NCBI GenBank assembly: GCA_963771005.1
Contig: CAVYRO010000003.1
Coordinates: 868,657-932,656 of the forward strand
Source: an uncultured Bacteroidales bacterium
GTDB lineage: Bacteria; Bacteroidota; Bacteroidia; Bacteroidales; GCA-2748055
Length of the DNA stretch: 64,000 nt
Reading direction: 5' to 3'
The notes below the pieces were generated by a model, which made no database searches, was not told where the DNA came from, and saw nothing but the letters and a program-made list of their open reading frames with translations. Below, piece by piece: positions 27,660-44,154 of the stretch (the stretch's first letter is position 1; each line of letters opens with the position of its first letter). Both the position numbers and the translations under genes were made by a program.

Positions 27660-27691
27660 ATAGTTTGGATTTTTATGGTTATACAATTAAA

Positions 27692-28369: not shown

Positions 28370-28793
28370 GGTAATTTAGTTTTAATTGTACATAAGTCAT
28401 TGTTCCTTCCCTGCGTCTCTACTTTATGAAGGAACCGGCTGTTCGCAATATTGACAGCCTCCACAAAAATCTTTTCCGGATCAGTATTATTATCATCTGA
28501 AAAAGACTTTCATCAGAACAGATTTATGTTTAAAACTATGCCAAAAATTCAAAGGAACTCCGTAATATATTTAGAATTAGCTGATTACGACCATATAACA
28601 GGATAAATGGCCATTCCATTAAGCATAAGATGAAATACATAAAATTTTCACATGTGGGGAAAATATTTCTACAATGACTCCCGAAAGTCATTGATAACGA
28701 AACACTGAATATTGAGAAAGAGGATTCCGGGATACCGGATGATCACTGACAATTTCACTTAAGGGAGGAAGAAATGAGATTTTTTCTGTTGTC

Positions 28794-29387
28794 TCACCTG
28801 TTTTTCCTGTGATGAAAGATATATTGCCGTCCCTTGTAACATAGCCATGCTGTCCCCGCGCCGATAACCGCACCTGCAAGGACATCAGTAGGATAATGAA
28901 CTCCCAGGTCCATTCGTGAGAAGCCGATCACCGATGCCCATGAATAAGCCGGGATGATGACATACCACCGGGGATAGAGTATTGACAGAGAGGTGGCAAA
29001 TGCAAAGGCATCCGAAGTATGGCCCGAAGGAAAAGAAGGGCTTCCGGCGCTGGCTGCCTTGATTATATCTGGGTATTTTTGAAAAGGACGGCTCCTGTTA
29101 ACACTGTATTTAAGGACGGTCGTTACGATTGCTGCCGACGCAAGGGTTGCACCTGCGTAAAATGAGTCATACCTGGCGGCAGTATCCTTTGCAATGAAGC
29201 TATACCCAAAAAGTATCAATGGTGTTGCAATGGCGACCGGCGCGGTTGCGTCATCAAAGAACCGGAATGTATTATCAAGCCCGGGATTTCTTCCATGGTT
29301 AATTGCCCGCAGCAGGTTTATATCCGGATTCTGTGCAAAAGTGGAAAAGCCGGTGAGAAGAACTACCAGGAGAAGAAATTTTTTCAT
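28794..29387 (-). CDS. PAP2-family phosphatase
   Basis: The three PAP2 motifs are KYSVNRSRPF, PSGHTS and SRMDLGVHYPTDV. The likely start is MKKFLLLVVLLTGFSTFAQ. Confidence 0.85.
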   Translation of the reverse strand: MKKFLLLVVLLTGFSTFAQNPDINLLRAINHGRNPGLDNTFRFFDDATAPVAIATPLILFGYSFIAKDTAARYDSFYAGATLASAAIVTTVLKYSVNRSRPFQKYPDIIKAASAGSPSFPSGHTSDAFAFATSLSILYPRWYVIIPAYSWASVIGFSRMDLGVHYPTDVLAGAVIGAGTAWLCYKGRQYIFHHRKNR

Positions 29388-29582
29388 GGAGCTTGCGTAT
29401 AAGAAAATCAAATTTACATATACCTTTGATTTTTTAAATGAAACGGGAGAACATAATATATTTACCTGCTCACCTGCAAAATTTCCGTCTCCCTGTCATC
29501 CTGAAGTCAGACAGTGGTTTCGGAACGTCATTCCGGTTCGGGCAAAGTTCCCGTTTAACTTATATTAAAATACAATCCGATC

Positions 29583-30377
29583 ATGAAACAGGTATTGATC
29601 GAAGCCCTTATGGCAGCCGGTAAGATTCAAAGGAAACATTACCAGTCTGACCATCAAATTTCCATTAAGGAAAATTTTACCAGTATTGTTACAGAAGCCG
29701 ACAAGGAGAGCGAAAAAGAGATCATCCGGGTGATTGAAAAGCATTACCCGGGGCATAACATACTTTCCGAGGAAAGCGGTTATACCGGTAAAAATTCTGA
29801 ATTTACATGGATCATCGATCCTGTTGACGGCACTTCAAACTATGCAGCCGGAATTCCCTGGTTTGGACCACTGATAGCCCTCATTGAAAATAATCGTCCA
29901 ATCCTGGCGGGAGCCTATTTGCCCGTCAGCGGCGACATGTTTCTTGCTGAGGCGGGAAAGGGCGCAACCCGGAATGGCCATTCCCTTGAAATCAAGGACA
30001 GGGATCTCAAAGACGCTCTTTCCGGTTTCTCCACAAATTACTCTGAAGATGAGGACTACCAGCGCCTGGCATTGGGGATCTACCATTTTCTTGTCCAGAA
30101 TACCCGGAACGTCCGCACCACCAATGCCCTTGTAGACCTGATGAATGTTGCCACCGGCAGTTACGGTGGCTGTGTCATCATGTTTAACGGTCTTTGGGAT
30201 ATCGTCGCCCCTTACCTTATCATCAGGGAAGCAGGCGGTATAATGAAAAACCTGGATAGTCTTGAAATCGATTTTACAGCCGGAAGGGAGGCTCTTCTCA
30301 GGAATTACCCGGTAGTGACCGGTTCCGGGTTGTTCGTAACAAAGGTCCTGGAAGAGATAACACGACTGACTCCTTAA
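29583..30377 (+). CDS. Inositol monophosphatase family protein
   Basis: Matching motifs are LSEESG, WIIDPVDGTSNY and WDIVAPYLIIREAGG. Confidence 0.85.
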   Translation: MKQVLIEALMAAGKIQRKHYQSDHQISIKENFTSIVTEADKESEKEIIRVIEKHYPGHNILSEESGYTGKNSEFTWIIDPVDGTSNYAAGIPWFGPLIALIENNRPILAGAYLPVSGDMFLAEAGKGATRNGHSLEIKDRDLKDALSGFSTNYSEDEDYQRLALGIYHFLVQNTRNVRTTNALVDLMNVATGSYGGCVIMFNGLWDIVAPYLIIREAGGIMKNLDSLEIDFTAGREALLRNYPVVTGSGLFVTKVLEEITRLTP

Positions 30378-30480
30378 GCACGGTCATCAGATTTCATATC
30401 CCTTTGAAAGATCAATTATTATCCTCTTTATTGTTTCCACTATTAACTTCATTGAATATATTCCAAATATTTCCGGAATC

Positions 30481-31623
30481 ATGAAAAGCCAATCTAAACA
30501 AACCATCTGTGTACATGAAGGCCGGGTGGCCGATAAATTCTCGGGCATAAACACCCCGGTTTACACATCTACCTCCTACGGTTACCTGGATAGAGAGGAA
30601 AGATATTACCCGCGATATTTCAACGTTCCCAACCAGAAGGCACTGATCGACAAGCTTTCCAGGCTGGAAAATACCGAATCCGGACTGATCTTCGGTTCGG
30701 GTATGGCGGCTATCAGCACAACTCTCCTCAGTTTACTGGGGAAGGGTGACCATGCCATTTTCCAGAAGGGTCTGTACGGGGGAACGATCCATTTCATCCG
30801 GCAGGACCTTGAGCGTTTCGGCATCGAATTCACCATCGCTGCCAGTAACCCCATTTCAGCCTTTGAGAATGCCATCCGGAAAAATACGAAGGTCATATTC
30901 ATCGAAAGTCCTTCCAACCCGTTGCTTTCCGTAACCGACCTGGAAGCCATTGCGAATCTGTGTAAATCCCGGAATATCATCTCCGTGATCGATAATACCT
31001 TCGCGTCTCCGATCAATCAGAACCCAGCTGATTCTGGTATCGACCTCATTATCCACAGCGCCACCAAATACCTTGGCGGACATAGCGATATTTCCGCCGG
31101 CGCTGTTTTGGGCAAGGAGGAACATATTGCTGCCATTAAGGCAACATCGTTGAATCTTGGCGGTACATTGAATCCTCAGATGTGCCATTTGCTTGAAAGG
31201 AGCATGAAGACCCTCGCCATCAGGGTTGCCAGACAGAATGAGAATGCGATGCGGATCGCACGATTTCTTCATGATCACCCGAAGATCACAAAGATTTATT
31301 ATCCCGGTTTGCCGGATCATGAAGGATATGGAACGGCAAAAAAGCAGATGCTTGGATTCGGCGGAATGCTTTCATTTGAACTGGAGGGGCAGGATTCTTA
31401 TGAATTCCAGAAAAGACTTGAACTGATCAGACCGGCCATGAGCCTGGGCGGGATAGAATCAACAATATGTTCGCCGGCCTTAACATCACACAGGCACCTC
31501 ACAAAGGAACAACGTGAGGATGATGGCATACGGGACAGCCTGCTCAGGCTGTCGGTGGGGATTGAAGATGTGGATGAACTGGTGCAGGATCTGGAACAGG
31601 CGTTTGAAAGGAAACGGATTTAG
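30481..31623 (+). CDS. Cys/Met-metabolism PLP-dependent enzyme (cystathionine gamma-synthase, beta-lyase or gamma-lyase family)
   Basis: The PLP-lysine context is HSATKYLGGHSD. Other matches are ..IFIESPSNPLL.. and the C-terminal LLRLSVGIEDVDELVQDLEQA. Confidence 0.85.
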   Translation: MKSQSKQTICVHEGRVADKFSGINTPVYTSTSYGYLDREERYYPRYFNVPNQKALIDKLSRLENTESGLIFGSGMAAISTTLLSLLGKGDHAIFQKGLYGGTIHFIRQDLERFGIEFTIAASNPISAFENAIRKNTKVIFIESPSNPLLSVTDLEAIANLCKSRNIISVIDNTFASPINQNPADSGIDLIIHSATKYLGGHSDISAGAVLGKEEHIAAIKATSLNLGGTLNPQMCHLLERSMKTLAIRVARQNENAMRIARFLHDHPKITKIYYPGLPDHEGYGTAKKQMLGFGGMLSFELEGQDSYEFQKRLELIRPAMSLGGIESTICSPALTSHRHLTKEQREDDGIRDSLLRLSVGIEDVDELVQDLEQAFERKRI

Positions 31624-31744
31624 GAGGCAAGAGGAAGAATGAATATGGAACAGGGCGATCGTGAATCATGAAGTACATTAATCGCTGTGATCTCTGAATT
31701 ATGAGATCGTGATGATGTTTTTAGGATATTTCACCATGTAAATA

Positions 31745-32340
31745 ATGGAAACCGCTCCGCGGTTTATGGTTTATCCCGCCTCCTACTGCAGGTAGAATTT
31801 CAAAACCCCGACGTCTGTTTCATGGAACCAAATCCTGTCCGGATATATAAAATTTCTAAGATTAAACTCATTCCAGGGTTTTGAAATTCAACCTGCAGCT
31901 AATTAATGGGCACCGCTCCGCGGTGGGTTCAACCTGGGAATGAGATCCGACCTATGAATTAAATTTGCATTTTTTCCCTGATGAAACCCATTTATAGCAT
32001 GGGAACCGCTCCGCGGTTTATGGTCAACCCTGCGTCCTATGCAGGTAGAATTTCAAAACCCCGACGTCTGTTTCATGGAACCAAATCCTGTCCGGATATA
32101 TAAAATTTCTAAGATTAAACTCATTCCGGGTTTTGAAATTCAACCTGCAGCTAATTAATGGACACCGCTCCGCGGTGGGTTCAACCTGGGAATGAGATCC
32201 GACCTATGAATTAAATTTGCATTTTTTCCCGGATGAAACTCATTTATAGCATGGGAACCACTCCGCGATGGATTCAATCCCGCGAATGAAATCCATCGCA
32301 ACAATGGGTTTGCAATAACCGGGAATGAGATCCGAGTATG
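31745..32340. repeat. 252-254-bp tandem repeat, two near-identical copies plus a degenerate third; each full copy contains a 23-nt inverted repeat
   Basis: Unit starts (ATGG[GA]AACCGCTCCGCGGTTTATGG) are at 31745 and 31999, and in degenerate form at 32251. The arms CTGCAGGTAGAATTTCAAAACCC (31786-31808) and GGGTTTTGAAATTCAACCTGCAG (31876-31898) match at 22 of 23 positions. The same pair recurs at about 32040-32061 and 32128-32150. Confidence 0.9.
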
Positions 32341-32404
32341 AAATTGATTTGTATTTTATGTCATTCGAAGGAAGAACAGCCCGGAGGGCTGGCCATGTTT
32401 TAGC

Positions 32405-32476
32405 CATGGGTTGGAGCAACAGGCGGATAAATTCTGTGGAATGGCCATTTTTTTCGCCTGTTGCTCCTACCCATGG
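32405..32476. other. Long perfect-stem hairpin (21 of 22 bp stem, 28-nt loop) in a non-coding region
   Basis: CCATGGGTTGGAGCAACAGGCG (32405-32426) pairs with CGCCTGTTGCTCCTACCCATGG (32455-32476). The inner 13 bp are perfect. Confidence 0.8.
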
Positions 32477-32610
32477 TTGAACGCGGGAGTTGCCACTAAA
32501 CCATGGAGTGGTTTCCATTGTTCACTATAAGCAAACCATAGGAATTCGATTTCTTCATGGTTGATTCCAACCGTGGATTGTTCTGACTTAAAATTTAAAA
32601 CGAGCCGAAT

Positions 32611-33163
32611 ATGAGAAAAGTGATTATGCAGATGAATGTCTCACTGGATGGAGTTGCCGACCATAATGTGGCCATTGCCGACAATGAGTTGCATGACTTT
32701 GCAACGGAGCAACTCGAGGATACGGATCTCCTTCTGTTCGGAAAGGTAACGTATCTGCTTATGGAAAGTTACTGGCCCCATACACATGAAGATCCCGAGG
32801 CTACCCCGAGCATGGTGGAATTTGCACAGAAATTCAATGCCCTGCCCAAGATCGTATTTTCCCGGACCCTTAAGGAGGCTCGCTGGCAAAATTCACGGAT
32901 AGTCACAACTGATGCGGCTGAAGAAGTGCGCAAATTAAAACGGCAAGCTGGGGAAAAATATAGGTGTCGGCGGAATTGCTTTAAGCAGGGAATTGATGAA
33001 AGAGCGACTCATCGATGAATACATCATCCTTGTCCATCCTGTGATCTGGGGAGAAGGAAGGAAGTTATTTGATGGCTTGGAAGACAGGATAAATCTAAAT
33101 TTGATCAAAACACGGATTTTTAAATCGGGTGTAGTTGTTTTACGATACGAATCCAAGGGATGA
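32611..33163 (+). pseudogene. Dihydrofolate-reductase-like protein (RibD_C family), third paralog, frameshifted in the G4A5 run at 32950-32958
   Basis: ORF 32611..33018 reads MRKVIMQMNVSLDGVADH...EEVRKLKRQAG and then loses homology. The shifted frame continues KNIGVGGIALSRELMKERLIDEYIILVHPVIWGEGRKLFDG...VVLRYESKG*, with the stop at 33161-33163. Confidence 0.75.
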
Positions 33164-33347
33164 TTTTGGTGGCTGAGGATCATTTCCGAAGTCAGACTGA
33201 TGCTTTTTTGATGAAAAAACACCTGATTCCCCTAAGAATTGATCAAAATAGCATCAGATTTGAAGTTTTTTCCGGTCATTTCAAAATTAGCCATGCCCTT
33301 GTCCCGACCTCTCTTTACAACGCTGAAACTCATCGTATCTTTGAACC

Positions 33348-34179
33348 ATGAAAAAACTTTTTCACATCCGGAAATTTTCCGAAGCCGAGGTACGAAAGCT
33401 GGAGAGGACAGTCAATGAACCGCACCAGCATGATTTTGAAGAATTACTCGTGGGCATGGAAGGATCGCTTGAGCATTTTATTGATTTCAAATCAGAGGAA
33501 GTGGATGCTCCGTTTATCAGTTTCGTGACGAAAAGAAAGGTCCACAGGGTTGTTCCCAAAATAAAAGATGGAAAATGCAGTATCTGGGTCATACGCTTCA
33601 GGAGTGAATTTATTCCCGAAACAACCTTCCAGTTATATTCCTGGTTTCACGGGTATGCAAACATGAAGCTTCAATCCGGGGAATGTTTTGACAGGATGCC
33701 CCGGCTGTGTGAAATGATGTATCGCGGAATCCGGGCAGGATGATCCCGATTACGCTGTGATTCGTCACTTACTGAGCGCTCTTTTCATCATGGTTGAGTC
33801 TGAGCGGAAGAAGCTTAATCCCGGTGCTGACATCCTTCATTCGACCCAGAATACAACATTTAAAAATTTTCTGAAAATACTCGAAGAAAATTTCCGTCGT
33901 CCGGAAGGTGTGGAATTCTACGCTGAAAAATTATTCATGACTTCCCGTAATCTCAACCTGATCTGCCATAATATACTGCAGCAGAGCGTCTCGGAAATCA
34001 TCGAGACGCGTAAGCTCATTGAGGCAAAAAACCTGCTTATAAGCACCGGTAAAACTATATCCGAGATCGGTTTTGAATTGGGCTACAACGAGAAATCCTA
34101 TTTCACGAACGTATTCAAAAAAAAGTCCGGACAAACGCCCACTGAATTCCGGGAGGAGATGAGCCGGCTTCTTTCCTGA
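33348..34179 (+). pseudogene. AraC-family transcriptional regulator, frameshifted near 33723-33740
   Basis: The N-terminal cupin-like half is ORF 33348..33743 and the C-terminal HTH_18 half is ORF 33757..34179 (ISEIGFELGYNEKSYFTNVFKKKSGQTPTEFR). The second frame reads back through ESGQDDPDYAVIRHLL, joining the two halves. Confidence 0.8.
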
Positions 34180-34283
34180 TATCACAACACATTTACCGGA
34201 TAATGTAACACTGCAACCTTCTTTAGGCAGTACCTTTGTATTGTTGATTTTACAAAGATTTATTATAAAAAAGGAAAACAAAA

Positions 34284-34835
34284 ATGGGAACAAATTCAGA
34301 AGCTAAGAATAAAACCCGGTGGGTTTCAGATCCGGCACACAGTGAACTCATGTTCAGGGTTAAACATATGATGATTTCCAATGTTAAAGGAGAGTTCACA
34401 AGGTTTACGGCGGAGATTGACGGGGAGAATTTTGTTGAGGCTCCGGTGAATGTGGTCATCGATACTTCTTCGGTTTATACCAACGATGAGAGTCGTGACA
34501 AACATCTTAAAAGTGCTGATTTTTTTGATGCAGATAATCAAAAAGAGATCCGGTTCGAAGGAAAATCGGTCACGAAAGCGAATGACGGTACTTTTGAGCT
34601 GAAAGGACTTCTCACGATGAAGGGGAAGACAAAGGAGGTTATTCTTGATGTCGAATTCGGTGGTATAAACAAGGATCCCTGGGGAAATGAAAAAGCCGGC
34701 TTTTCCCTCAGCGGGAAGATCAACCGGAAAGACTGGGGGCTGAACTGGAATGCAGCCCTGGAGACCGGCGGTGTCCTGGTGAGTGATGAAGTCAGGATCA
34801 GCGGGGAGATACAATTCGTTAAACAGGCTGCCTGA
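34284..34835 (+). CDS. YceI-family (polyisoprenoid-binding) protein
   Basis: Matching segments are WVSDPAHSELMFRVKHMMISNVKGEFTRF, ..SRDKHLKSADFFDA.. and ..LTMKGKTKEV.. Confidence 0.85.
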   Translation: MGTNSEAKNKTRWVSDPAHSELMFRVKHMMISNVKGEFTRFTAEIDGENFVEAPVNVVIDTSSVYTNDESRDKHLKSADFFDADNQKEIRFEGKSVTKANDGTFELKGLLTMKGKTKEVILDVEFGGINKDPWGNEKAGFSLSGKINRKDWGLNWNAALETGGVLVSDEVRISGEIQFVKQAA

Positions 34836-34887
34836 GCATACACGCAGAAAGGCCGCTATGCGGGATGCAGCCTTTAAAAAGAAGGTG

Positions 34888-35715
34888 ATGAAATTACACG
34901 AACTCAATCCGATGACAAACCAATTTACAAGCACCAGCCCGATGCCGGTGCTTTTTCTTGGTCATGGCAGTCCCATGAATGCAATAGAGGAAAATGAATT
35001 TGTTAAAGGTTGGAGGGAGACTGGTAAAACCATTCCCAGGCCGAATGCCATTCTTTGTATTTCGGCCCACTGGGAAACGCGCGGAACCTATGTCACGGCA
35101 ATGAAACGGCCTGCCACCATCCATGATTTCGGCGGATTTCCGCGAGCCCTCTTTGAAGTGCAATATCCAGTCCCGGGAAGTCCGGCGCTTGCTGAGGAAA
35201 CCAAAAATGTCCTTACCGGGACGGATATTCTTTTTGATGATAAATGGGGCCTCGACCACGGTGCATGGTCGGTGATCAGGCATCTCTACCCGGAAGCCGA
35301 TGTGCCCGTCATCGAGATGAGCCTGGATTACGGCCGGTTGCCCCGGTATCACTATGACCTTGCGCGGGAACTCGATCCATTGCGCAGGAAAGGCATCCTC
35401 ATCATCGGAAGCGGAAATATGGTACATAACCTAAGGATGGTTGCGTGGGATAAATTCAATGAGGATGATTACGCCTATGACTGGGCTGCCGAAGCCTCTT
35501 CGGAAATGAAAAAATTCATCCTTGAAGGTGATCACCTGTCGCTGGCCGATTATTCTTCCCGTGGGGAGGCTTTTAACCTGGCTATCCCCACACCGGAACA
35601 CTACCTCCCCCTGCTGTATGTTTTGGCTCTGCAGGGAAAGGATGAAAAGGTAACCCTATTCAATGATAAAGCCGTTGCAGGGTCTCTTACAATGACATGT
35701 GTGCGCCTGGGGTAG
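34888..35715 (+). CDS. ygiD: 4,5-DOPA dioxygenase extradiol (LigB/YgiD family)
   Basis: The conserved N-terminal segment is PVLFLGHGSPMNAIEEN. Other matches are ..ILCISAHWET.. and ..DHGAWSVIRHLYPEADVPVIEMSLD. The start is taken as MKLHEL at 34888; the ORF-track start at 34783 overlaps the YceI gene. Confidence 0.8.
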   Translation: MKLHELNPMTNQFTSTSPMPVLFLGHGSPMNAIEENEFVKGWRETGKTIPRPNAILCISAHWETRGTYVTAMKRPATIHDFGGFPRALFEVQYPVPGSPALAEETKNVLTGTDILFDDKWGLDHGAWSVIRHLYPEADVPVIEMSLDYGRLPRYHYDLARELDPLRRKGILIIGSGNMVHNLRMVAWDKFNEDDYAYDWAAEASSEMKKFILEGDHLSLADYSSRGEAFNLAIPTPEHYLPLLYVLALQGKDEKVTLFNDKAVAGSLTMTCVRLG

Positions 35716-35721
35716 AAGGGT

Positions 35722-36258
35722 GAGCAGATTGTTTCAGGGGGAGTTTTACCACAGATACCACAGATTATCACGGATTAAGAGGGGTTGTTTCAGGTTGTTT
35801 CAGGTTGTTTCAGATTGTTTCAGATTGTTTCAGGTAGTTTCAATTCCATTCAACAAATCAACAAATCAACAAATCAATAAATCAACAAATTCTTCAGGTG
35901 GTTTCAGTGGGAGTTTTACCACAGATTTCACAGATTATCACAGATTAAGAAAGGTTGTTTCAGGTTGTTTCAACTCCATTCAACAAATCAACAAATCAAC
36001 AAATCAACAAATTTTTCGGGTGGTTTCAGTGGGAGTTTTACCACAGATTTCACAGATTATCACAGATTAAGAAAGGTTGTTTCAGGTTGTTTCAACTCCA
36101 TTCAACAAATCAACAAATCAACAAATTCTTCAGGTGGTTTCAGTGGGAGTTTTACCACAGATTTCACAGAATATCACAGATTAAGAAAGGTTGTTTCAGG
36201 TTGTTTCAACTCCATTCAACAAATCAACAAATCAACAAATCAACAAATTCTTCGGGTA
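35722..36258. repeat. Higher-order composite array: about 4.5 copies of a 114/122-bp unit built from the C, 10-mer and 8-mer modules
   Basis: The unit is TTCTTCAGGTGGTTTCAGTGGGAGTTTTACCACAGATTTCACAGATTATCACAGATTAAGAAAGGTTGTTTCAGGTTGTTTCAACTCCATTCAACAAA(TCAACAAA)n. Phase marks at 35890, 36012, 36126 and 36248 give periods of 122, 114 and 122 bp, depending on octamer count. The first unit carries (GTTGTTTCAG)x5. Confidence 0.9.
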
Positions 36259-36266
36259 CCTGGTAC

Positions 36267-37466
36267 TCATGGCTTCAGGTATTCATCGAAAAATGACAGG
36301 ATATACCCGGAAGTTATCTCAAGCTGGTATCGTCCGTCGATTTCCGGCATACCGGCCAGCCAAAACATTTTCTTGAGAATATGACTTTTTAGAAGGGCGC
36401 CGTCATCACTGAAACTAAAATGATTGGCGCCGGCGATGATAAAACGGTGTCTTGCTTCTGGGGGCATACGGTTGTAAACCGATAGAATATTGCTCCTGAT
36501 CGCACTGTCGGCTGCTGCCTGGCGTTTGTGGTCGCTCATAAGGAACATGAAAGGTTTGTGGATACCTTCCCTGATGACATTTCCGTATAAAGCTCCGTCA
36601 ATATCGATGCCTGCATGGATCATGGAATTCGAGGAGACGCTTTGGGCTGCCACCGCTCCCCCGAGTGAGTGGCCAAAGATCCCGATCCTGTTCATATCGA
36701 GCCTGTCGCGGAATCTTCCTGTTGGTGAATCATTCAATATACCCAGTCTTTGAATAACAAATCCCACATCATCACTCCAGGCGGACAGGAGTTTCTGAAC
36801 GACCTTCTCCTGTTCGATACCTGAAAAAATTTCAGGATCATTTTCGGGGGTGCGGTTGTATACTCGCCCGTCGGGAAAAACAACGACCCTGGTCCGGTAA
36901 GGTGCATCGAAACCGGCCACGATATAACCATGACTGGCAAGATCAGCAGCGAGAGCGGAGTATCCGAGTGTCAGCGAGGAAAGGCCCGCTCTCATGATGA
37001 CGACCGGGTATGACCTTCGCTCCCTCGATAGTTCTGCATTGCTGTAAACAGGAGCCCTGACCCTGGAGAGATCGCGTGTCAGAAAGTGACTGATGAGGGG
37101 TCCGCGTACTTTTTCAACCGCCTTTCTCCAGGAAACGGGCATGTAGTCCTCTTTTTCGCCCGGATCATCTTCCGAAGCGGGATACCATACCCATACTACC
37201 ACCTTGCGTATTTCGTCTTTTTCCGGTGCCAACATGTCAGATTGACCGGTATCCGCCCATGCATAGCTTACCCGCCCGACATGGTAGGGTCCTGAAGGTT
37301 CCGGAAGATTCATTGGCATTTTATGCTCGAACCATAAGAGGAGGAGGCCGGTTCCCGCTCCTGCCAGGACAATCAGCGCCAGAATGGTAAATCCATGGAT
37401 TAGACGGAACAGCATCCTTAGAATCCATGGCCTTGTAGCATGGGATGAATCCGGTTTTCCTGTCAT
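36267..37466 (-). CDS. Alpha/beta hydrolase with an N-terminal membrane anchor (PAF-acetylhydrolase or dienelactone-hydrolase-like)
   Basis: The nucleophile elbow is GHSLGG. The N-terminal TM segment is ILALIVLAGAGTGLLLLW. Confidence 0.7.
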   Translation of the reverse strand: MTGKPDSSHATRPWILRMLFRLIHGFTILALIVLAGAGTGLLLLWFEHKMPMNLPEPSGPYHVGRVSYAWADTGQSDMLAPEKDEIRKVVVWVWYPASEDDPGEKEDYMPVSWRKAVEKVRGPLISHFLTRDLSRVRAPVYSNAELSRERRSYPVVIMRAGLSSLTLGYSALAADLASHGYIVAGFDAPYRTRVVVFPDGRVYNRTPENDPEIFSGIEQEKVVQKLLSAWSDDVGFVIQRLGILNDSPTGRFRDRLDMNRIGIFGHSLGGAVAAQSVSSNSMIHAGIDIDGALYGNVIREGIHKPFMFLMSDHKRQAAADSAIRSNILSVYNRMPPEARHRFIIAGANHFSFSDDGALLKSHILKKMFWLAGMPEIDGRYQLEITSGYILSFFDEYLKP

Positions 37467-37648
37467 TGAAATATTTTTCCCGGTTGAAAGACCGGTGTTT
37501 ATCCTAAGTAAAACAACCGCCAGGCGAAAAATGATTTTATTAAACCTGAAACATAAGTCTGAAGATTAAATTCATTTTTCAAACTTACTACCCTGCCGGA
37601 TGTTTATTCCATTCAATAAATCAACAAATAACAAATCAACCAATAATT

Positions 37649-39120
37649 ATGCCCGAAAATGGTACAATGATACAGTACTTCCATGCATACACCCCGGTGA
37701 CGGGAGTCTTTGGAAGAATCTGGCGAAAAATGCCCCGGCCCTGGCCGGGGTGGGGATAACAGCGGTATGGATGCCTCCTGCATACAAAGGAACGTCGGGC
37801 ATTGCCGATACGGGATATGGCGTTTACGACCTTTTCGACCTTGGAGAATTTGACCAGAAAGGTACGGTCCGGACCAAATATGGTACCCGCGATGAATATA
37901 CCGGTGCCATAAAAGCGGTGCAGGATGCCGGAATGCAGGCTTATGCCGATATCGTATTTAATCATAAGCTGGGCGGCGATAAAAAGGAAAAATTCAAGGC
38001 CACACCTTTTAACCCCGGTAACAGGAATGAACCTACAGGAGAATTGCAAACCATAGAAGCCTGGACGAATTTTACGTTTCCTGGACGTAAGAAAAAATAC
38101 TCCGAACTGGAGTGGCACTGGTGGCATTTCAATGCTGCCGATTATAATGCGCTGGATGATAAGAATGACGCAGTTTTTCTTTTTGAAGGAAAGGAATTCA
38201 ATACTTCCGTGGATAAGGAAAAGGGGAATTTCGATTTCCTCATGGGCTGTAACCTGGACTTTAATAATGAGGATGTCAGGAAAGAACTTTTCTACTGGGG
38301 CGAATGGTACCTTGAGAATACCGGGATTGACGGATTCCGTTTCGATGCACTCAAGCATGTAAAATCTGATTTCTTTCTGTTCTGGCTGGATCATCTGCGT
38401 AAGAAAAGCGGCAGGAAATTATTCGCCATGGGAGAGTACTGGTCGAATAACCTGGCTGCACTGGAGAATATTTTGGATGCTACCAACAGAACAATAATGC
38501 TTTTCGATGCAGGGCTGCATTTTAATTTTGCTGCGGCAAGCAAAAAGGGGGAACAATATGACCTGAGGCAGATATTTGATAATTCCCTCGTTAGTATTCA
38601 CCCCGATCTGGCTGTCACACTGGTCAGCAACCATGACACTCAACCCTTGGAATCACTGGAATCGGTGGTAGAGGAATGGTTCAAGCCCCTGGCTTATTCA
38701 ATGATATTACTGAGACAAAGCGGATACCCCTGCATTTTCATGGCCGATTATTACGGCGCGGAATACAGTGGAAAGGCAAGGGATGGAAATGACTATGATA
38801 TAAAAATCAATAGCCACAAATGGATGATCGACAAGTTTCTGTATGCAAGAAAAACATTTTGTTTCGGGGATCAATATGATTATTTCGATCATTCCTCATG
38901 TGTAGGATGGACCCGGACGGGCGATGAAAACCATCCCGGGGGAATGGCGGTTTTGCTCAGCAATGGTGAGGCGGGGACGAAAAATATGCAGACGGCCACT
39001 CCCGGGACCAGTTATTATGATCTGACCGAGCATTTTGATGATGAGATCACGACAGACGGGAACGGATGGGCTGAATTCCGTTGCCCGGCAGGATCCGTCT
39101 CCGTTTGGGTTCCCGAGTGA
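37649..39120 (+). pseudogene. GH13 alpha-amylase (Bacillus licheniformis-type, cytoplasmic), frameshifted in the C4G2 run at 37692-37697
   Basis: The ATG at 37649 gives MPENGTMIQYFHAYTP. The long ORF frame then continues GDGSLWKNLAKNAPALAGVGITAVWMPPAYKG. The conserved GH13 regions are DIVFNHK, GFRFDALKHV, GEYW and LVSNHDTQP. The ORF-track start at 37600 lies inside an 8-mer repeat run. Confidence 0.9.
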
Positions 39121-39439
39121 GCCGGCCGGGTAAAAATAATCAGGATGAACCTTTTTTGGGCCATAGCATTAGCATCCGGAGGGGTTGTACTGGTGATATT
39201 TTTCTGAACAACTCGTGAAAGGCGTGGTCCCTGGGAAGTCCGAAGGGTTAACCGCGAGGTCCTTTATTTTTACCTGCCCGCGAGCGGAGTGACCGTCCTG
39301 TTCATCCTTGGCACGCTGGCCCTTACAAGAAAGATCCCGCGATGGGCCGGTTTCCTTTTGTTGTTGATCTAAATCATCTTTGTTTTTGTTAGTTATACAT
39401 TGAAATGAATCTACAACATGAAATATTTATTTAGTAAGC

Positions 39440-40166
39440 ATGAACCTATCCGGAAATAAAATTCTGATCACCGGGGGAGCCTCAGGCATTGGCCTGGGCC
39501 TGGCGGAAAAATTCATTGGCGAGGGAAATTCGGTCATAATTTGCGGTCGGCGCGAGCCGGCGCTTGATGAGGCATCGGCGTTGTTTCCACCGGTAATTAC
39601 GCGCAAATGTGACCTGTTGGTGCAGGCCGAGCGCGAGGCATTGTTCAACTGGATATCCGATGAGCACAGCGATGTCAATGTCCTGGTTAATAATGCAGGT
39701 ATACAGCAACGGATGGGGATCCATGATGAAAATTTTTTCCCGCGGGCAAAAGAGGAAATACGGATTAATGTTGAAGCCCAGGTCCATTTGATCTCTCTTT
39801 TCCTGGGGTTGAAGTCGTTGGATACGATCCTCAATGTGACTTCCGGGCTCGCATTTGTTCCCATGACCCATGCTGCAGTTTACTCTGCCACAAAAGCCTT
39901 CTTCCATTCCTTTCACGGTTTCCCTCAGGGAGATCGTCAGGCAGGATAACATAGAGGTGATCGAGATCATTCCCCCGGCAGTGAATACGGATCTCGGGGG
40001 GAAGGGCGTGCATAGCAATGCCACCCCTGTCGGTGAATTTGCCGAAGCAGTTCTAAGTCAGCTCAGGCAGGGGAAGACAGAGATCACTTATGGTTTCACG
40101 GAAGGCATGCCGGCGTCTTCTCCTGATGATTTGGAGAAAATATTCAGGAGGATGAACGGAATTTAG
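39440..40166 (+). pseudogene. SDR-family oxidoreductase, frameshifted at the T3 run 39911-39913
   Basis: The cofactor motif is ILITGGASGIGLGLA and the active-site motif is YSATKAF. ORF 39440..39949 reads ..ATKAFFHSF and ORF 39870..40166 continues TVSLREIVRQDNIEVIEIIPPAVNTDLGG in another frame. Confidence 0.85.
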
Positions 40167-40520
40167 GTGTTGTTTGAAATGGTTTGAAATGGTTTGAAAG
40201 AAGAGGAACGCGGATTTGACGGATGTTGACGGATCTCACGGATTTTGGATAGTTGACTCTTCATTCACCAAATCACCAAATTCTCCGAGTTTACCACAGA
40301 TTTCACAGATTATCACGATACCGTGATTATCCGCACAAATCCGTCAATCCGTTTCCTCTCCACTTCACCAAATCACCACTTCACCAAATCACCAAATCAC
40401 CAAATTTCCGGGAGTTTCACCACAGATTTCACAATTATCACAGAAATTGTTTCAGTTGGTTTGAACTCCATTCAACAACTCAACAACTCAACAAATTCTT
40501 ACCAGATCCGTGTTCAGAGT
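40167..40520. repeat. Mosaic intergenic repeat element showing the full module grammar, including D and inverted D modules
   Basis: The order is (GGTTTGAAAT)n; GAAGAGGAACGCGGATTTGACGGATGTTGACGGAT; then (TCACCAAA)n; then ACCACAGATTTCACAGATTATCAC. Next comes the inverted D module (CCGTGATTATCCGCACAAATCCGTCAATCCGTTTCCTCTCC); then (TCACCAAA)n; CACCACAGATTTCACAATTATCACAG; and TTGTTTCAGTTGGTTTGAACTCCAT. The element ends with (TCAACAAC)n and ATCCGTGTTC. Confidence 0.85.
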
Positions 40521-40545
40521 TCAATAAGGTGTATATGAATGGATC

Positions 40546-41875
40546 TTAATGTCCTTTCTTTCCCATAAGCCCAATAACATTCGCGGTCATCGCCTCAATG
40601 CCCGTTTCAATCGCTTTCCGGTAATCGGCCTGCAAAACGGGTGAATGAAGCGGGGCAGGGGATTCACCTTTACTCTTTAGACCGGCCATTAGCTCCGGAC
40701 GTGTGACGCCGAGCCATACCAGGCATACCGGGATATTTTCAGGGGTTCTTCCATATTTCCCGAAATCTTCCGCGCCCATAACAGGTTTAACGGCAAACGA
40801 TATTTTCGCTTCCGAGAATGCCTCCGGAATATAAACGGATATCCCCCACAAGCGCCTCATCGTTCATTACGGGCGGAGTTTCGACGGTATCGATCTTTAC
40901 CTCGGGGAGGCGGTCTTCGGGCATACCGGCCGTGAGGGCGGCGCCCCGGCATATTCTTTCGATGGCGCTGATGGTCTTTTTGATCACCTCATCGTTATAA
41001 TAGCGCAAGGTGAGTTGCATTTTCACCTCATCGGGAATGATATTCGGACGCGTGCCGCCATGGATCGAGCCCACCGTAACGACCACCGGTTCGAGCGGGC
41101 TGATCTCGCGGCTTGCGATGGTTTGCAGGTCAAGTACGATCCGGGAGGAGATCACGATGGGATCGATACATTTTTCCGGGTAGGCACCATGTCCGCCTTT
41201 GCCATATACGATGATCTCCGCTGACTTAACCCCGGCAAGGGCAGGCCCGGTGACCAGGCCGATCTTCCCGGATTCCACATCCGGGTTGATGTGATAGGCC
41301 AGGGCATAATCCGGTACGGGAAATTTCTGAAATAATCCTGCGTCAATGGCCGCATCGGCGCCGGCGGAGATCTCTTCCCCCTCCTGTGCAATGACCATTA
41401 GGGTGCCTTTCCAGAGACCCTTCAGGGTTACGAGGGCATGCACCGTCCCCGCGAGGACCGACATGTGGATATCGTGGCCGCAGGCATGCATCACATAAAC
41501 TTCCTCGCCATTATCGTTTTTAGCCTGCTTTGTACTGGCGAAATCAAGGCCGGTTTTTTCCTTTACAGGAAGTGCATCCAGGTCGCATCGCAGCATGATC
41601 ACGGGGCCTTTGCCGTTCCTGAAAATCCCGACAACGTTATTGCCGCCGAAATTACGCGTAACTTCGAGGCCTGCACTCTCAAATTCCCCGGCCATCCGTT
41701 CGGCAGTCTGAAATTCCTGTAACGAGAGCTCGGGATTCCGGTGGATCTGCTTGCAAAGTTCATAGGCTTTGGGACTCTCAGTCTTAGCCGTAGCTATGAT
41801 CTTTTCGTTTACTTGTGAGGCAGCGTTCATTTGAAGAACGACGGACAATAAAAAAATGAGTTCAGGTATTTTCAT
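40546..41875 (-). pseudogene. M20-family amidohydrolase/peptidase (hippurate-hydrolase-like), frameshifted near 40820-40835
   Basis: The metal-binding motif is HACGHDIHM. ORF 40787..41875 reads ..PPVMNDEALVGDIRLY and ORF 40546..40860 continues IPEAFSEAKISFAVKPVMGAEDFGKY in another frame. The N-terminus is a signal peptide. Confidence 0.85.
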
Positions 41876-42005
41876 GGCTTTTTTTTTGGTGACCTGGTAT
41901 TACCGGGTGACTTTAAATCGGTACGAATGTACTACAATGTAACAAGCTCTTCAATCAACAAATCAAAAAATTCTTCAGGTGACGGTGCGTGTGGTCTTCT
42001 TGCCC

Positions 42006-42137
42006 GGGCGTAACCTTACCATGGGCATAACCTTACCATGGGCGTAACCTAACCACAGGCATAACCTACCACGGGCGTTACCTAACCACGGGCGTAACCT
42101 TACCACGGGCGTAACCTTACCACGGGCGTAACCGTGG
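42006..42137. repeat. 17-bp tandem repeat, about 7.8 copies
   Basis: The unit GGGCGTAACCTTACCAC and variants start at 42006, 42023, 42040, 42058, 42073, 42090, 42107 and 42124. The array is preceded at 41950-41985 by TCAACAAATCAAAAAATTCTTCAGGTG, the 8-mer/junction motif of the main family. Confidence 0.9.
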
Positions 42138-42627
42138 CTAATACAATGAAACCCCTCCGGGGTGCCGGGAACACGATCATCATATATTATGCGCGTGACC
42201 TTACCTCGGGAGTAACCATGAGTAATACAATTAAACCGCCTCCGGGGTGCCGGGAACACGATCATCGTATACAATGGACGTTTTGGTGGGTAATACAATT
42301 AAATCGCCTCCGGGGTGCCGGGAACACGATTATCATATATTATGCGCGTGACCTTACCACGGGAGTAACCATGAGTAATACAATTAAACCGCCTCCAGGG
42401 TGCCGGGACCACGATCATCGTATACAATGGACGTTATGGTGGGTAATACAATTAAATCGCCTCCGGAGTGCTGGGACACGATCATCGTATATTATGTGCG
42501 TGACCTTATCACGGGCGTAACCATGAGTAATACAATTAAACCACCTCCGGGGTGCCGGGACCATGATCATCGTATACAATGGACGTTATGGTGGGTAATA
42601 CAATTAAATCACCTCCTGTGGCAGATC
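42138..42627. repeat. 152-153-bp tandem repeat, about 3.2 copies, each made of two related half-units
   Basis: Both half-units begin TAATACAATTAAA(C/T)CGCCTCCGGGGTGCCGGGAACACGAT. Half H1 ends CAATGGACGTT(T/A)TGGTGGG, and half H2 ends TTATGCGCGTGACCTTACCACGGGAGTAACCATGAG. Phase marks are at 42221, 42374 and 42526. Confidence 0.9.
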
Positions 42628-42711
42628 TTCTCTTCCCTTTTTACTTTTTACTTTTTACTTTTGCCTTGGATTTTCTTCCCTCGGCGGGGTTTCAGATCCC
42701 TGAAACAATCT

Positions 42712-44154
42712 TTAATTATCCGAAAGCACAATAGTTTCAATGGAATGGGCTGGGCTGTTGAGCGGGGTTGCCTTTTTCTTCATCCAAAGCTTGAATGGGA
42801 TATCATCATTGGTCCTGTTCATCACCACGACAGCTATCGTTCCATCGGGATTGACAAAAGCTGTGGTAAGAAAGCGGTCGTCGTCCGACGAACTGATGAT
42901 GCGTTTGGCCCCGGGCCTGATAAACTTTGAGAAATGGCCGATGTAGTAATAGGAGTTCATATATTGAACATCTCCTGCATGTGTATCGGCGATCATGGTG
43001 GCCATGCACAGGTTGCCTACGTGATTCGGGCCTCCGGTTTCATCGAGAAGCAGGTTCCAGTCGATCCATCCTGCAGCCCAGTTGTTCAGGTCCATGATCA
43101 TGGATTCGCCGTACTGTTCTCCCCACCGCCATTCCGCGATCCTGTCAGCGCGGAAGGAGGCCACCGTCGCCTCGGTGAACACCAGGTTTTTCTCCGGCCA
43201 GGCTTCGTGGACCCGTGCAACGTTTTCGAAATGATCTCCCACGTACCAGTGAAATCCTGTCCCCCAGACGTATTGTGCTGCCTCCGGATCATCGAGCACC
43301 GCCTGCGCCCTCTGGTACATGATCCCCCGGTTATGATCCCAGATCACCAGCTTAATATCCTTTTCCGTGGCGGATAGGGCCGGTCCCAGGTAGTCCCTTA
43401 CAAAATCGCGTTCTTCCTCCCCGGTATAGATGCACGATTCCCAGGTCTGTAATGCCATGGGCTCATTCTGCACGGTGATTCCCCAGATGGGTATCCCTTC
43501 TTTCTTATATTCCCCAATGAAACGGATATAATATTGAGCCCAGGCATTCCGGTATTCAGGCCTGAGTTTTCCACCATGAAGCATGTCATTGTTGGTTTTC
43601 ATCCATGCCGGCGGACTCCATGGTGAGGCCAGGATCTTTACCGGACCTTCTGCACGCTCCAGTGCGGCCTTAATAAATGGGATACGGTATTTGCGGTCAT
43701 GATCTATGTTGAATGCGGAAAGAGACGTATCGCCCGGAACCTCATCGTATGCATAGCTGTCGCTGGAGAAATCACAACTGTTTATATTGGTGCGGCACAA
43801 GGAATAACCGATGCCGTCATCCATAGAAAAGTAGGCAGTAAGGATAGCTTGCTGCCGCTTAACGGGTAATCTGTAGAAGGTCTCGGCGGCAGCATCGGTG
43901 AAAGCACCACCAAAACCCGCGATCGTCTGGAAGGTCTTGTCCGGGTCGATGAAGATGAATGGATAAGCCTCATCGGGCTGCGCAAGATCTTCGAAGGGAG
44001 GCACTTCTTTCTCCGTAAGCCGGTCCCCGGTATTTTTTGCCGTAACAAACACCCTGGCCTCTATGTTGTTCCGATCCCGGATGTTCCCCGGAGTCTGACA
44101 GAATATTGCAGGGACAACACCTGCTAGAAACAGGAAAAAAAAGATTTTTTTCAT
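42712..44154 (-). CDS. Glycoside hydrolase family 30 (glucosylceramidase-like)
   Basis: After a signal peptide, matching segments are GFGGAFTDAA, WSPPAWMKTN, ITVQNEP (acid/base context) and LVFTEAT (nucleophile context). Confidence 0.85.
   Translation of the reverse strand: MKKIFFFLFLAGVVPAIFCQTPGNIRDRNNIEARVFVTAKNTGDRLTEKEVPPFEDLAQPDEAYPFIFIDPDKTFQTIAGFGGAFTDAAAETFYRLPVKRQQAILTAYFSMDDGIGYSLCRTNINSCDFSSDSYAYDEVPGDTSLSAFNIDHDRKYRIPFIKAALERAEGPVKILASPWSPPAWMKTNNDMLHGGKLRPEYRNAWAQYYIRFIGEYKKEGIPIWGITVQNEPMALQTWESCIYTGEEERDFVRDYLGPALSATEKDIKLVIWDHNRGIMYQRAQAVLDDPEAAQYVWGTGFHWYVGDHFENVARVHEAWPEKNLVFTEATVASFRADRIAEWRWGEQYGESMIMDLNNWAAGWIDWNLLLDETGGPNHVGNLCMATMIADTHAGDVQYMNSYYYIGHFSKFIRPGAKRIISSSDDDRFLTTAFVNPDGTIAVVVMNRTNDDIPFKLWMKKKATPLNSPAHSIETIVLSDN

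Follow-up and report, generated by a model that had tools for sequence, protein, structure and literature searches.

Intergenic repeats assembled from short modules have been described in several bacterial lineages. The BOX elements of Streptococcus pneumoniae and S. suis are composed of boxA, a tandem run of boxB modules whose copy number differs between loci and strains, and boxC, have terminal modules that pair with each other, contain spurious ORFs and often occur in 3' UTRs (PMC3049150). The REP, BIME and REPIN sequences of Proteobacteria are interspersed extragenic mosaics of a few modules with hairpin-forming inverted pairs (PMC3733652, PMC3116915). The cyanobacterial STRR heptamers and the TAACTGA arrays of Beggiatoaceae, Cyanobacteria and Bacteroidetes are intergenic direct repeats on the 7-nt scale, which are sometimes grouped into larger assemblages and for which a connection with gene rearrangement has been proposed (PMC4679880). 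The locus considered here, part of a 64-kb stretch of DNA (the window) that was analyzed throughout, can be likened to BOX by architecture, both being modular composites of intergenic, non-coding DNA; a relationship in sequence is not evident. We favor, with moderate confidence, the view that it is a non-coding minisatellite, formed when part of a dispersed, lineage-specific mosaic element was amplified locally in tandem. Such an array, mosaic interspersed repeat or minisatellite, is probably without a dedicated function.

The array between two convergent genes

The array fills the gap between the stop codons of two convergent genes:

34858-35715, plus strand: LigB-family gene (4,5-DOPA dioxygenase extradiol/YgiD-like; Pfam PF02900, E 1.3e-18)
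36267-37466, minus strand: PAF-acetylhydrolase-like alpha/beta hydrolase gene (Pfam PF03403, E 1.1e-25)

The LigB-family gene on the left flank ends in a stop codon at 35713-35715, and its product, called as 285 aa in a public collection, has a best non-self homologue that is 77% identical and a C-terminus that stops at the position equal to that in the relative L105. The hydrolase gene on the right flank, with its stop-codon complement at 36267-36269, is not present in the syntenic relatives; its best non-self homologues are only 53% identical, the named ones coming from Bryobacteraceae, Dyella, Verrucomicrobiota and Actinomycetota. The gap between them (35716-36266) measures exactly 551 bp, as the sequence-only reading had it, and contains just 11 non-repeat bases on the LigB side and nine on the hydrolase side. 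The remainder is a 13-bp linker fragment followed by four composite units of 170, 122, 114 and 112 bp. Hence, the earlier estimate of about 4.5 copies filling the gap was right about the filling, with the count now being four units, the first of them expanded, plus the fragment. Each unit is made of a 38-bp C-arm (GGAGTTTTAC plus three CACAGATT words), two to six GGTTGTTTCA decamers, three to five TCAACAAA octamers and a linker, with the linker GGTGGTTTCAGTG sitting before each C-arm:

35727-35739, plus strand: partial linker/decamer fragment GATTGTTTCAGGG at the array start, resembling the inter-unit linker
35740-35909, plus strand: unit T1, 170 bp, with C-arm 35740-35777, six decamers 35783-35842, five octamers 35850-35889 and linker 35890-35909
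35910-36031, plus strand: unit T2, 122 bp, with C-arm 35910-35947, two decamers 35953-35972, four octamers 35980-36011 and linker 36012-36031
36032-36145, plus strand: unit T3, 114 bp, with C-arm 36032-36069, two decamers 36075-36094, three octamers 36102-36125 and linker 36126-36145
36146-36257, plus strand: unit T4, 112 bp, truncated in its linker, with C-arm 36146-36183 (one substitution, CACAGAAT), two decamers 36189-36208, four octamers 36216-36247 and TTCTTCGGGT at 36248-36257

Tandem Repeats Finder recovers both of the higher-order periods proposed from the sequence at 35858-36257, namely 114 (3.2 copies, 94% matches, score 650) and 122 (3.3 copies, 91% matches, score 709), which places the array among minisatellites as a head-to-tail unit of high identity in the 10-200-bp range. 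The same program finds the decamers (period 10), the octamers (period 8) and the CACAGATT-type words (period 9-10) nested inside it. T1 is the most divergent copy, being separated from T2-T4 by 5-7 substitutions and 48-58 gap positions, while any pair among T2-T4 shows two substitutions plus octamer indels. The copies thus differ in octamer number and in substitutions, as had been noted, with the correction that the octamers number 5, 4, 3 and 4 from T1 to T4, rather than three or four, and that the decamers also vary (6, 2, 2, 2). The 38-bp C-arm pattern has ten matches in the window against 0.00 expected from 100 shuffles, which excludes chance.

A dispersed repeat family and its absence from relatives

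Modules related to those of the array form clusters at about ten loci, comprising 5.1% of the window, and C-arms occur at four of these loci. The principal members are:

51888-52440, minus strand: sister higher-order array of the same composite unit, with a 110-bp unit in one partial and four full copies
23599-23818, plus strand: single-copy element in another convergent gap, with decamers, octamer, D-arm (23688-23723), TC-rich box, octamers and C-arm (23781-23818)
40172-40510, plus strand: family element after an SDR gene, with a compact C-arm/D-arm hairpin at 40285-40356
63341-63724, plus strand: complete element, with decamers, C-arm (63423-63460), a decamer/octamer-array loop of about 190 nt and D-arm (63648-63683)
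15064-15922, minus strand: related higher-order array of a 58-bp unit in 14.5 copies, shifting to a 51-bp variant at 15714-15922
37613-37646, plus strand: octamer tract, short and of different length in different assemblies, in the divergent hydrolase/amylase gap

A complete element has a C-arm on the left, in which the three CACAGATT words are spaced at about 10 bp, a loop of tandem arrays of 10-bp (GGTTGTTTCA or GTTTGAAATG) and 8-bp (TCAACAAA or TCACCAAA) units, and on the right a D-arm of inverted words of the AATCCGTG type. The two arms form hairpins at three loci: in the 23599-23818 element the minus-strand RNA hairpin (23685-23822) has a folding energy of -43.7 kcal/mol and a z of -4.4; the compact hairpin at 40285-40356 reaches z -4.3 (minus strand) and -2.4 (plus strand); and the long hairpin of the complete element (63415-63690) has z -2.5. 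The sister array, also delimited as 51904-52405, lies between the genes for Usp and a DoxX-domain protein and is detected by Tandem Repeats Finder with period 110, 4.6 copies and 98% matches. Its units U1-U3 are identical and U4 has three substitutions, so that identity within this array is 97-100%; between a T and a U unit there are 7-14 substitutions, most pairs having 8-9, corresponding to about 92% identity between the arrays. The first, partial U unit has T-type decamers and the amplified U units have a common derived variant. Comparison of the T and U lineages with those at 23781 and 63423 shows the three CACAGATT words unchanged and the two spacer positions variable. In the 58-bp array, the unit consists of four TCAACAAC/TCAACAAA octamers and TTCAGTACTACGTAGAATCTCT (Tandem Repeats Finder score 1471, 97% matches), and the plus strand has a GC skew of +0.65. 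Further arrays occur elsewhere on the window's own 1.0-Mb contig (P0241, three units of about 165 bp) and on a 1.87-Mb contig (P0242). Eight of the nine family loci considered in the window adjoin a gene 3' end, the target array being placed between two stop codons. Element orientation relative to the upstream gene is a vacuous test, as an element in a convergent gap is always co-directional with one neighbor; the three informative tandem gaps split two to one.

The family belongs to this Bacteroidota genome alone. Relatives that share the gene order, at 68-84% amino-acid identity, have a tandem-repeat content of 0-0.19% versus 6.35% in the window, and none of the syntenic relatives contains the C-arm or octamer runs. 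The comparison of orthologous gaps, proposed with the sequence-only reading as a way to refute a function, was run through LigB, the hydrolase being unsuitable given its distant homologues. Relatives sharing the AraC-YceI-LigB synteny have no repeat downstream of LigB, which by that standard counts against a terminator; as their downstream gene differs, however, these gaps are not strictly orthologous. The target array lies at a synteny breakpoint, and arrays are found at four of the six junctions that differ from L105 versus none of the six conserved junctions. No real match to the family was found in JGI metagenomes, viral contigs, plasmids or phages: two JGI metagenome matches to the decamer-octamer junction fall within coding sequence of an AT-rich giant-virus contig and are due to chance, and BLAST of the gap gave one borderline 38-bp match among plasmids, inside a Bacteroides hydE gene, and no match among phages. 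Rfam at its gathering threshold has no match in the whole window, and permissive scans of the locus and eight foreign hairpin loci returned only sub-threshold snoRNA- and miRNA-like noise.

One module does extend beyond this genome. The exact C-arm 19-mer is found in more than 101 contigs spanning many phyla, where it forms an arm of a hairpin, compared to about four expected, and none of 101 foreign loci contains the window's other modules. An inverted right arm lies within about 200 nt in 49 of 111 foreign matches and at three other loci of the window; the target has none. In foreign hairpins such as L083 the words are conserved and the spacers vary, and hairpins of five genomes have a GxxExxY gene within the loop. 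The same arm architecture with other words (CACGAATT, CGCTAATT) flanks GxxExxY genes of the PD-(D/E)XK type. In the searchable literature we found neither a paper printing the arm words (17-19-mers) as strings nor a description of sub-repeat-armed hairpins enclosing GxxExxY genes. The bottom strand of the foreign hairpins is the stabler one, via G-U wobble, in 37 of 49 cases; this is not evidence of a strand preference, because the query fixed the left arm and the regular expression favored T-to-C variants.

Origin of the array and competing explanations

Our preferred explanation is that at the target only the "arm plus loop" half of the element was copied head to tail, four times. The process would be replication slippage or unequal recombination between direct repeats, operating at two scales: single 8- or 10-bp modules would be gained or lost at the small scale, and whole units of about 115 bp at the large one. 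Local amplification is indicated by the two substitutions per pair among T2-T4 and the identity of U1-U3, set against the greater T-U divergence. Module slippage is indicated by the variable octamer and decamer counts in near-identical units and by a nearby 7-bp indel between assemblies, in the tract at 37613-37646 relative to the Logan contig L102. These observations bear out the earlier proposal that octamer slippage and whole-unit duplication act together. Most likely the array has been kept because extra DNA is tolerated in a convergent 3' gap where a junction was recently rearranged, and not for any dedicated function; its neutrality we infer from the absence of evidence for a role.

The competing explanations range from artefact to function. 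An assembly artefact, by repeat expansion, collapse or mis-join, would have to produce units that are not identical but have substitutions and module counts of their own, and to do so while joining cleanly to intact gene ends at both edges, with equivalent arrays at several loci on two contigs. A Logan short-read contig (run ERR11594398) is identical to the window base for base from 36227, in the last octamer run, through the hydrolase gene; it stops inside the array, and thus independently supports the right edge and not the unit count. The count of four comes from one assembly, apparently long-read. A short-read contig also ends at the edge of the sister array, and such breaks at array edges mean that short reads cannot resolve the array; moreover, several nearby genes are apparently frameshifted, as is typical of uncorrected long-read indels. 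On balance, we regard an artefact as very improbable. The prospect that the array encodes a repetitive protein or peptide is practically negligible. ORFs of 61-139 aa do span it in three frames, and gene callers have called similar ORFs in the sister arrays (P0241, P0242). All four overlapping ORFs listed in the sequence-only reading are present, and its judgement that they are artefacts of periodicity holds: the periods of 8, 10 and 122 bp are not divisible by three and break the reading frame, the translations are periodic and of low complexity with no Pfam family above the cut-off, and two of the ORFs extend into the hydrolase gene in antisense. A search of 5.8 billion protein sequences retrieved only two similar "proteins", both of them ORFs of those other arrays. 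The suggestion of a bidirectional terminator fails for the intrinsic type, as neither strand of 35716-36266 has a terminator-like site or a G+C-rich hairpin followed by a T-run. The gap has no inverted repeat of note or palindrome (11 C words, 0 inverted words), and its RNA folds no better than shuffles, the entire gap giving z +1.2 and +2.0 and a single unit -0.05 and +0.9. Because the inverted arm is missing there, the array cannot form the hairpin of the element and is not an intrinsic terminator. Intrinsic-terminator-like sites occur only at chance frequency across the window, being nowhere enriched, and hence their absence from the gap is uninformative about termination as such. With just 11 and 9 bp separating the array from the stop codons, too short for any other terminator, both transcripts have to be ended inside the array or in the opposite gene. 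This raises the possibility of a transcription barrier without hairpins, for example a rut-like region for Rho loading. Each unit would give a plus-strand RNA with a G-free, C-containing, unstructured tract of 45-50 nt (ACUCCAUUCAACAAAUCAACAAA...UUCUUC), the decamer complements (UGAAACAACC) in the minus-strand RNA are C-rich and G-poor, the octamer blocks have 9-11 C and 0-3 G per 40 nt, and the lack of structure above shuffles is what rut sites, as C-rich and G-poor RNA of about 60-80 nt, require; the minus strand of the 58-bp array is likewise extremely biased toward C over G. However, the net GC skew across the target array is -0.01, since G-rich decamer blocks alternate with C-rich octamer blocks, and one rut site would not need four copies. 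The relatives do without such an array 3' of LigB, where L105 has an ordinary hairpin and T-run, and, at 19532-19673 and 37613-37646, family members also occur upstream of genes and antisense to both neighbors. We therefore consider a functional barrier quite unlikely.

It is also unlikely that the array is a protein-binding platform whose C-arm words are recognized by a protein that binds DNA or RNA. This could be a regulator, a nucleoid-associated protein or the enzyme that mobilizes the hairpins, and four direct copies would titrate or nucleate it. The retention of words amid varying spacers, both in the window and in the foreign hairpins, is consistent with this proposal, as are the excess of the 19-mer across phyla, the like arms with other words flanking GxxExxY genes, and the phasing of words and decamers at about 10 bp, which puts the three CACAGATT on one helix face. 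Invariance in the window and recurrence across phyla both hint at sequence-specific constraint, which speaks against neutrality. Nonetheless, the word-versus-spacer comparison draws on only four independent lineages, the conservation among copies may merely reflect recent common origin or gene conversion, and the window encodes no candidate protein, the GxxExxY motif not being found there. Among known sites, the DnaA box was rejected: although TTATCCACA is found beside some foreign arms, CCACAGATT is preceded by variable bases, and the window words differ from the box at two or more positions. By eye, likeness to CRP half-sites, IHF sites and Fur boxes fails on spacing or consensus. A broader and rather doubtful extension would see the C-arm as the recognition end of a cross-phylum hairpin class whose autonomous members have a GxxExxY PD-(D/E)XK nuclease gene in the loop, with loop and higher-order arrays as by-products of copying; such elements might mark or promote sites of cassette exchange, as the position of the arrays at synteny breakpoints suggests.

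Taken alone, the array, as a bacterial minisatellite with satellite-like nested periodicity, is a minor curiosity. Yet about 5% of the window derives from one small vocabulary of 8-10-bp modules, and as these are missing from syntenic relatives, the genome offers a clean case for the origin and homogenization of bacterial repeat families. The coincidence of arrays with gene-order breakpoints means that they may be footprints or agents of cassette exchange, and one module belongs to a type of hairpin, sometimes built around a nuclease gene, that is not in Rfam. As short-read assemblies break at such arrays, families of this kind are systematically under-reported.

Relation to known repeat classes

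Two familiar classes can be set aside: a CRISPR array, because there are no unique spacers and all sequence between the repeated words is itself repeated, and a MITE, as the target has no inverted termini and no target-site duplication is evident at its edges. The higher-order repeats of eukaryotic satellites, in which short repeats are contained in a longer unit that is locally amplified and homogenized, provide an analogy only; the present arrays are bacterial and span hundreds of bp versus kb to Mb, with no centromere-like role implied. The MIRU/VNTR minisatellites of Mycobacterium are likewise tandem and intergenic, with MIRU units of 40-120 bp in strain-variable copy number. MIRUs, however, lie within operons, contain small ORFs coupled to the neighboring genes and are not built of nested micro-arrays. 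The resemblance to STRR and TAACTGA arrays lies in close relatives that have the same gene neighborhood without the arrays and in assemblies that break there. The units here are of 8 and 10 nt and of other sequences, with no TAACTGA dimer in the window; they are nested in a larger tandem composite unit and are found mostly beside stop codons, as opposed to just upstream of starts.

With REP, BIME and REPIN the family shares a mosaic drawn from a small vocabulary and an extragenic location at gene 3' ends or between convergent genes. REPs are single imperfect palindromes of 20-40 bp with a GTAG or CGTC tag and a link to the RAYT transposase, whereas the arms here are triplets of 8-bp words, the target has no palindrome, and no RAYT is seen in the window. 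In the case of BOX, the variable-copy internal tandem module has its parallel in the octamers and decamers of the target. Pairing terminal modules around a tandem middle are absent from the target and occur in the three sister elements at 23599, 40172 and 63341. The loop contains several kinds of 8-10-bp micro-array instead of one 45-bp boxB, the target reiterates the whole "arm plus loop" block with the closing arm missing, and the host belongs to Bacteroidota rather than Firmicutes. As for the sub-repeat-armed hairpins around GxxExxY (TIGR04256) genes, the target differs in having neither the right arm nor an enclosed gene. It does have their left arm of three CCACAGATT-type words, in its four C-arms, and the C-arm of the window corresponds to that arm word for word. 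The foreign loops also contain 7-8-bp tandem arrays, and the whole units are sometimes themselves in tandem, as in L090 (326 bp, 3.0 copies).

Anatomy of the array between the convergent genes

The plus-strand LigB-family ORF ends at 35715 and the minus-strand PAF-AH-like hydrolase ORF at 36267; hence, the gap between them (35716-36266) measures exactly 551 bp from stop to stop, as the sequence-only reading had it, and just 11 + 9 of its bases lie outside the repeats. The re-read sequence matches that reading's description of a composite block in tandem with a 114/122-bp period, and Tandem Repeats Finder recovers both periods superimposed on the gap (114 bp, 3.2 copies, 94% matches; 122 bp, 3.3 copies, 91%), with nested arrays of GGTTGTTTCA (period 10), TCAACAAA (period 8) and CACAGATT-type words (period 9-10). 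The unit order is GGAGTTTTAC and three CACAGATT words (together the 38-bp C-arm), AAGAAAG, the decamers, ACTCCAT, the octamers and TTCTTCRGGTGGTTTCAGTG. The earlier count of about 4.5 copies needs revision: parsing on the anchor GGAGTTTTACC yields a 13-bp linker fragment followed by four units, T1-T4.

Composite units of the target array (anchor parsing)
T1: 170 bp, six decamers, five octamers; expanded and more divergent
T2: 122 bp, two decamers, four octamers
T3: 114 bp, two decamers, three octamers
T4: 112 bp, two decamers, four octamers

These module counts and the near-identity of T2-T4 support the proposal that octamer slippage and whole-unit duplication both contributed. There are 10 matches to the 38-bp C-arm pattern in the window, with 0.00 expected from shuffles; C-arms are located at 23781-23818, 35740-36183, 51971-52338 and 63423-63460. 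All four overlapping ORFs reported earlier exist, but they are artefacts of the periodicity, as that reading held: the periods are not divisible by three. Their translations are periodic low-complexity strings with no Pfam match above the cut-off, and two of them run antisense into the hydrolase gene; that the array encodes a protein is scarcely conceivable.

It is very improbable that the four-unit structure is an assembly artefact. A Logan short-read contig (L102, run ERR11594398; window 36227-37754) has the same sequence as the window from inside the final octamer run across the hydrolase gene and ends within the array, and a second (L107; window about 52419-54265) stops at the edge of a sister array. 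Since contigs of the same organism end in or at the arrays, short-read assemblies would systematically miss this repeat family. The SDR, M20 peptidase, sulfatase and PepX-like genes (39440-40166, 40546-41875, 22153-23563 and 20030-21818, respectively) are each split into two overlapping frames, through either pseudogenisation or long-read indels left uncorrected; this bears on the trust to be placed in single-base differences between units. The octamer tract 37613-37646, in the divergent hydrolase/amylase gap, differs from L102 by a 7-bp indel and three nearby substitutions. As annotated, the amylase ORF starts at 37600 and extends across this tract; its actual start probably lies further downstream.

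Sister arrays and hairpin elements in the window

A second array of the composite unit occupies 51904-52405 on the minus strand (110 bp x 4.6, about 92% identical to the target). Within arrays, T2-T4 are 98-100% identical, with two substitutions per pair, and the full units U1-U4 of the second array 97-100%, with no differences among U1-U3; identity between arrays is lower, at 7-14 substitutions (8-9 in most pairs). T1 is an older unit, more divergent than T2-T4, and the partial first unit of the second array retains T-type decamers while its amplified units have a common derived variant. The higher identity within arrays and the T-type decamers of the partial unit are the mark of a unit that first dispersed and was then amplified locally. 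To catch spurious gene-caller ORFs of sister arrays, the array translation was searched against 5.8 billion predicted proteins, among which only two clusters matched. One (P0241) lies on the 1,002,312-bp contig that includes the window, though outside the window itself; its three composite units, each about 165 bp long, have the C-arm, a decamer, three TCAACAAA, a D-word, a TC-rich box and three TCACCAAA. The other (P0242) is on a 1,873,826-bp contig. Higher-order amplification is therefore recurrent in this family, which, as far as public data go, seems limited to this genome or species.

Clusters of the target's module vocabulary form about ten loci covering 5.1% of the window. Among them is the array of a 58-bp unit of four TCAACAAC/A octamers and a spacer with the palindrome CTACGTAG; this array has an extreme strand bias (plus-strand GC skew +0.65, C only 6%).

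Other repeat arrays in the window
15064-15889 (array as a whole to 15922): 58-bp unit x 14.5, 97% identity, 51-bp variant at the 3' end; shares the target's module vocabulary
15027-15045, 15920-15985, 16464-16622: dispersed motif CGSTGAGCGYAGCCGAACC, bracketing the 58-bp array
31745-32267: higher-order array of an unrelated family, 252 bp x 2.1 (95%)
42005-42616: higher-order array of an unrelated family, a 17-mer x 7.6 run, then 153 bp x 3.2 (93%)

The motif CGSTGAGCGYAGCCGAACC also occurs as a 47-bp x 2.7 tandem array (16449-16573), 3' of a formate/nitrite transporter gene.

A 36-bp module, ATCCGTGATTATCCGCACAAATCCGTCAAATCCGTG (the D-arm), is found at 23688-23723 and 63648-63683; if G-U pairs are allowed, its words complement those of the C-arm in inverted orientation. 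RNA folding predicts three stacked 7-9-bp helices at loci with both arms.

Loci with both arms
23685-23822, minus strand: hairpin, -43.7 kcal/mol, z -4.4
40285-40356: hairpin, z -4.3
63415-63690: hairpin, z -2.5; decamer and octamer arrays make up its loop of about 190 nt

The target gap has 11 C words, zero inverted words and no inverted repeat of note, and its RNA folds no better than shuffles (whole gap, z +1.2 and +2.0; single unit, z -0.05 and +0.9). Hence, what the target repeats is one half of the element, the arm with its loop.

Gene-order breakpoints and arms in other phyla

The window carries a SusC/SusD gene pair at 1816-6899, which assigns its organism to Bacteroidota. LigB relatives are 73-77% identical, and the AraC-YceI-LigB order is kept in two contigs that encode them. 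Tandem repeats cover 0 and 24 bases of these contigs (12.8 kb each) versus 6.35% of the window, and neither the C-arm nor octamer runs are found in them. In the comparison with relatives suggested in the sequence-only reading, the AraC-YceI-LigB relatives have no repeat downstream of LigB, which speaks against the terminator role proposed there; the gene after LigB differs in them, however, so that the gaps are not strictly orthologous. In one syntenic relative (L105), LigB is followed by ordinary DNA including a plausible hairpin and T-run. This contig is collinear with window 27231-35712 and again at the SDR (39440-40160) and GH30 (42721-44169) genes, with differing genes between, and the hydrolase-amylase segment (36267-39120) stands in place of its GyrI-like and glyoxalase genes. 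The target array sits exactly where this synteny ends, beside the hydrolase, whose best relative is 53% identical and whose named matches are all outside Bacteroidota; it looks horizontally acquired. Across window 27231-44169, six junctions differ from L105 and four of these hold repeat arrays, versus none of the six conserved ones; this association with gene-order breakpoints is only suggestive in so small a sample. The arrays at 31745-32267 and 42005-42616 are both at junctions of differing gene order.

The C-arm 19-mer CACAGATTATCACAGATTA extends to more than 101 contigs of species-representative genomes (a lower bound; about 4 expected by chance), the hosts among the matches listed including Prevotella, Flavobacterium, Bacteroides, Victivallales, Ardenticatenaceae, Omnitrophota, Treponema, Ignavibacteriota and Planctomycetaceae; it has no match in 2.9 million viral contigs. 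Among the matches listed, it typically forms a hairpin's left arm, each arm having three roughly 9-10-bp words: the order is CCACAGATT-n-CACAGATT-nn-CACAGATT, a loop, and an inverted triplet of words that ends in GTGG. Two or more inverted words lie within 200 nt downstream in 49/111 and upstream in 11/111. Within 300 bp of these arms, tandem arrays of 6-12-bp units reach five times their density in the remainder of the loci (1.21 versus 0.24 per kb), partner arms being part of the excess. Whole composite units are tandemly duplicated in some foreign loci (e.g. 326 bp x 3.0, 97% matches, in L090), and none of the window's other modules occurs in the 101 foreign loci listed. A 123-bp x 5.2 tandem array, tRNA-gene-like by eye and unrelated to the target, begins a Bacteroidales MAG contig (L067, 1-642).

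Among the matches listed, the hairpin loops of five phylogenetically distant genomes contain GxxExxY ORFs (TIGR04256, PD-(D/E)XK-like; roughly 94-139 aa, E 3.5e-24 to 2.3e-46).

GxxExxY ORFs in hairpin loops
L007: 4159-4572
L014: 840-1226
L024: 4660-5076
L044: 7097-7486
L066: 5991-6272

Two of the five keep the three-plus-three layout with other arm words (CACGAATT, CGCTAATT); this suggests that structured arms delimit a gene cassette. The arm hairpins match no Rfam family, and in the searchable literature the arm words were not found in print and GxxExxY received passing mentions only. This arm, common to many phyla and occasionally carrying GxxExxY cargo, is the most interesting loose end.

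Origin, possible roles and known repeats

The proposed bidirectional terminator does not hold in its intrinsic, hairpin-dependent form: the gap has no stable hairpin, no terminator-like site on either strand and folding at shuffle level. The missing sites themselves mean little, as such sites are at chance level across window 1-60000 (23, 24 and 26 observed; 20.8, 21.6 and 22.1 expected from shuffles), this crude scan giving no sign of reliance on canonical hairpin and T-run terminators. A hairpin-independent, Rho-type barrier would suit the 45-50-nt G-free, C-containing, unstructured plus-strand RNA tract of each unit, and the 11 + 9 spare bases leave no room for another terminator of either transcript; we consider it quite unlikely, however, given a net array skew of -0.01, relatives that lack the array, and family members that lie 5' of genes or antisense to them. 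In convergent gaps, a within-window test of element orientation carries no information. A role as a putative protein-binding platform is likewise unlikely.

The array skew, chance-level terminators, array-free relatives and 5' or antisense family members lead us to favour, with moderate confidence, an array that would arise by slippage or unequal exchange and would persist by tolerance. The observation itself is confirmed with small corrections, and the target is a mosaic interspersed repeat or minisatellite, new as a variant but of a kind already known. In behaviour it is closest to VNTRs and short direct-repeat assemblages. For the TAACTGA arrays of Bacteroidetes, which are intergenic assemblages of short repeats, a similar link has been noted between the repeats, close relatives that lack them and the replacement of genes nearby (PMC4679880). 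In architecture it is closest to BOX elements, in whose pneumococcal form boxA pairs with boxC and the variable boxB run between them has few interactions, so that they have in common with the window's both-arm loci the succession of arm, tandem-array loop and arm (PMC3049150).
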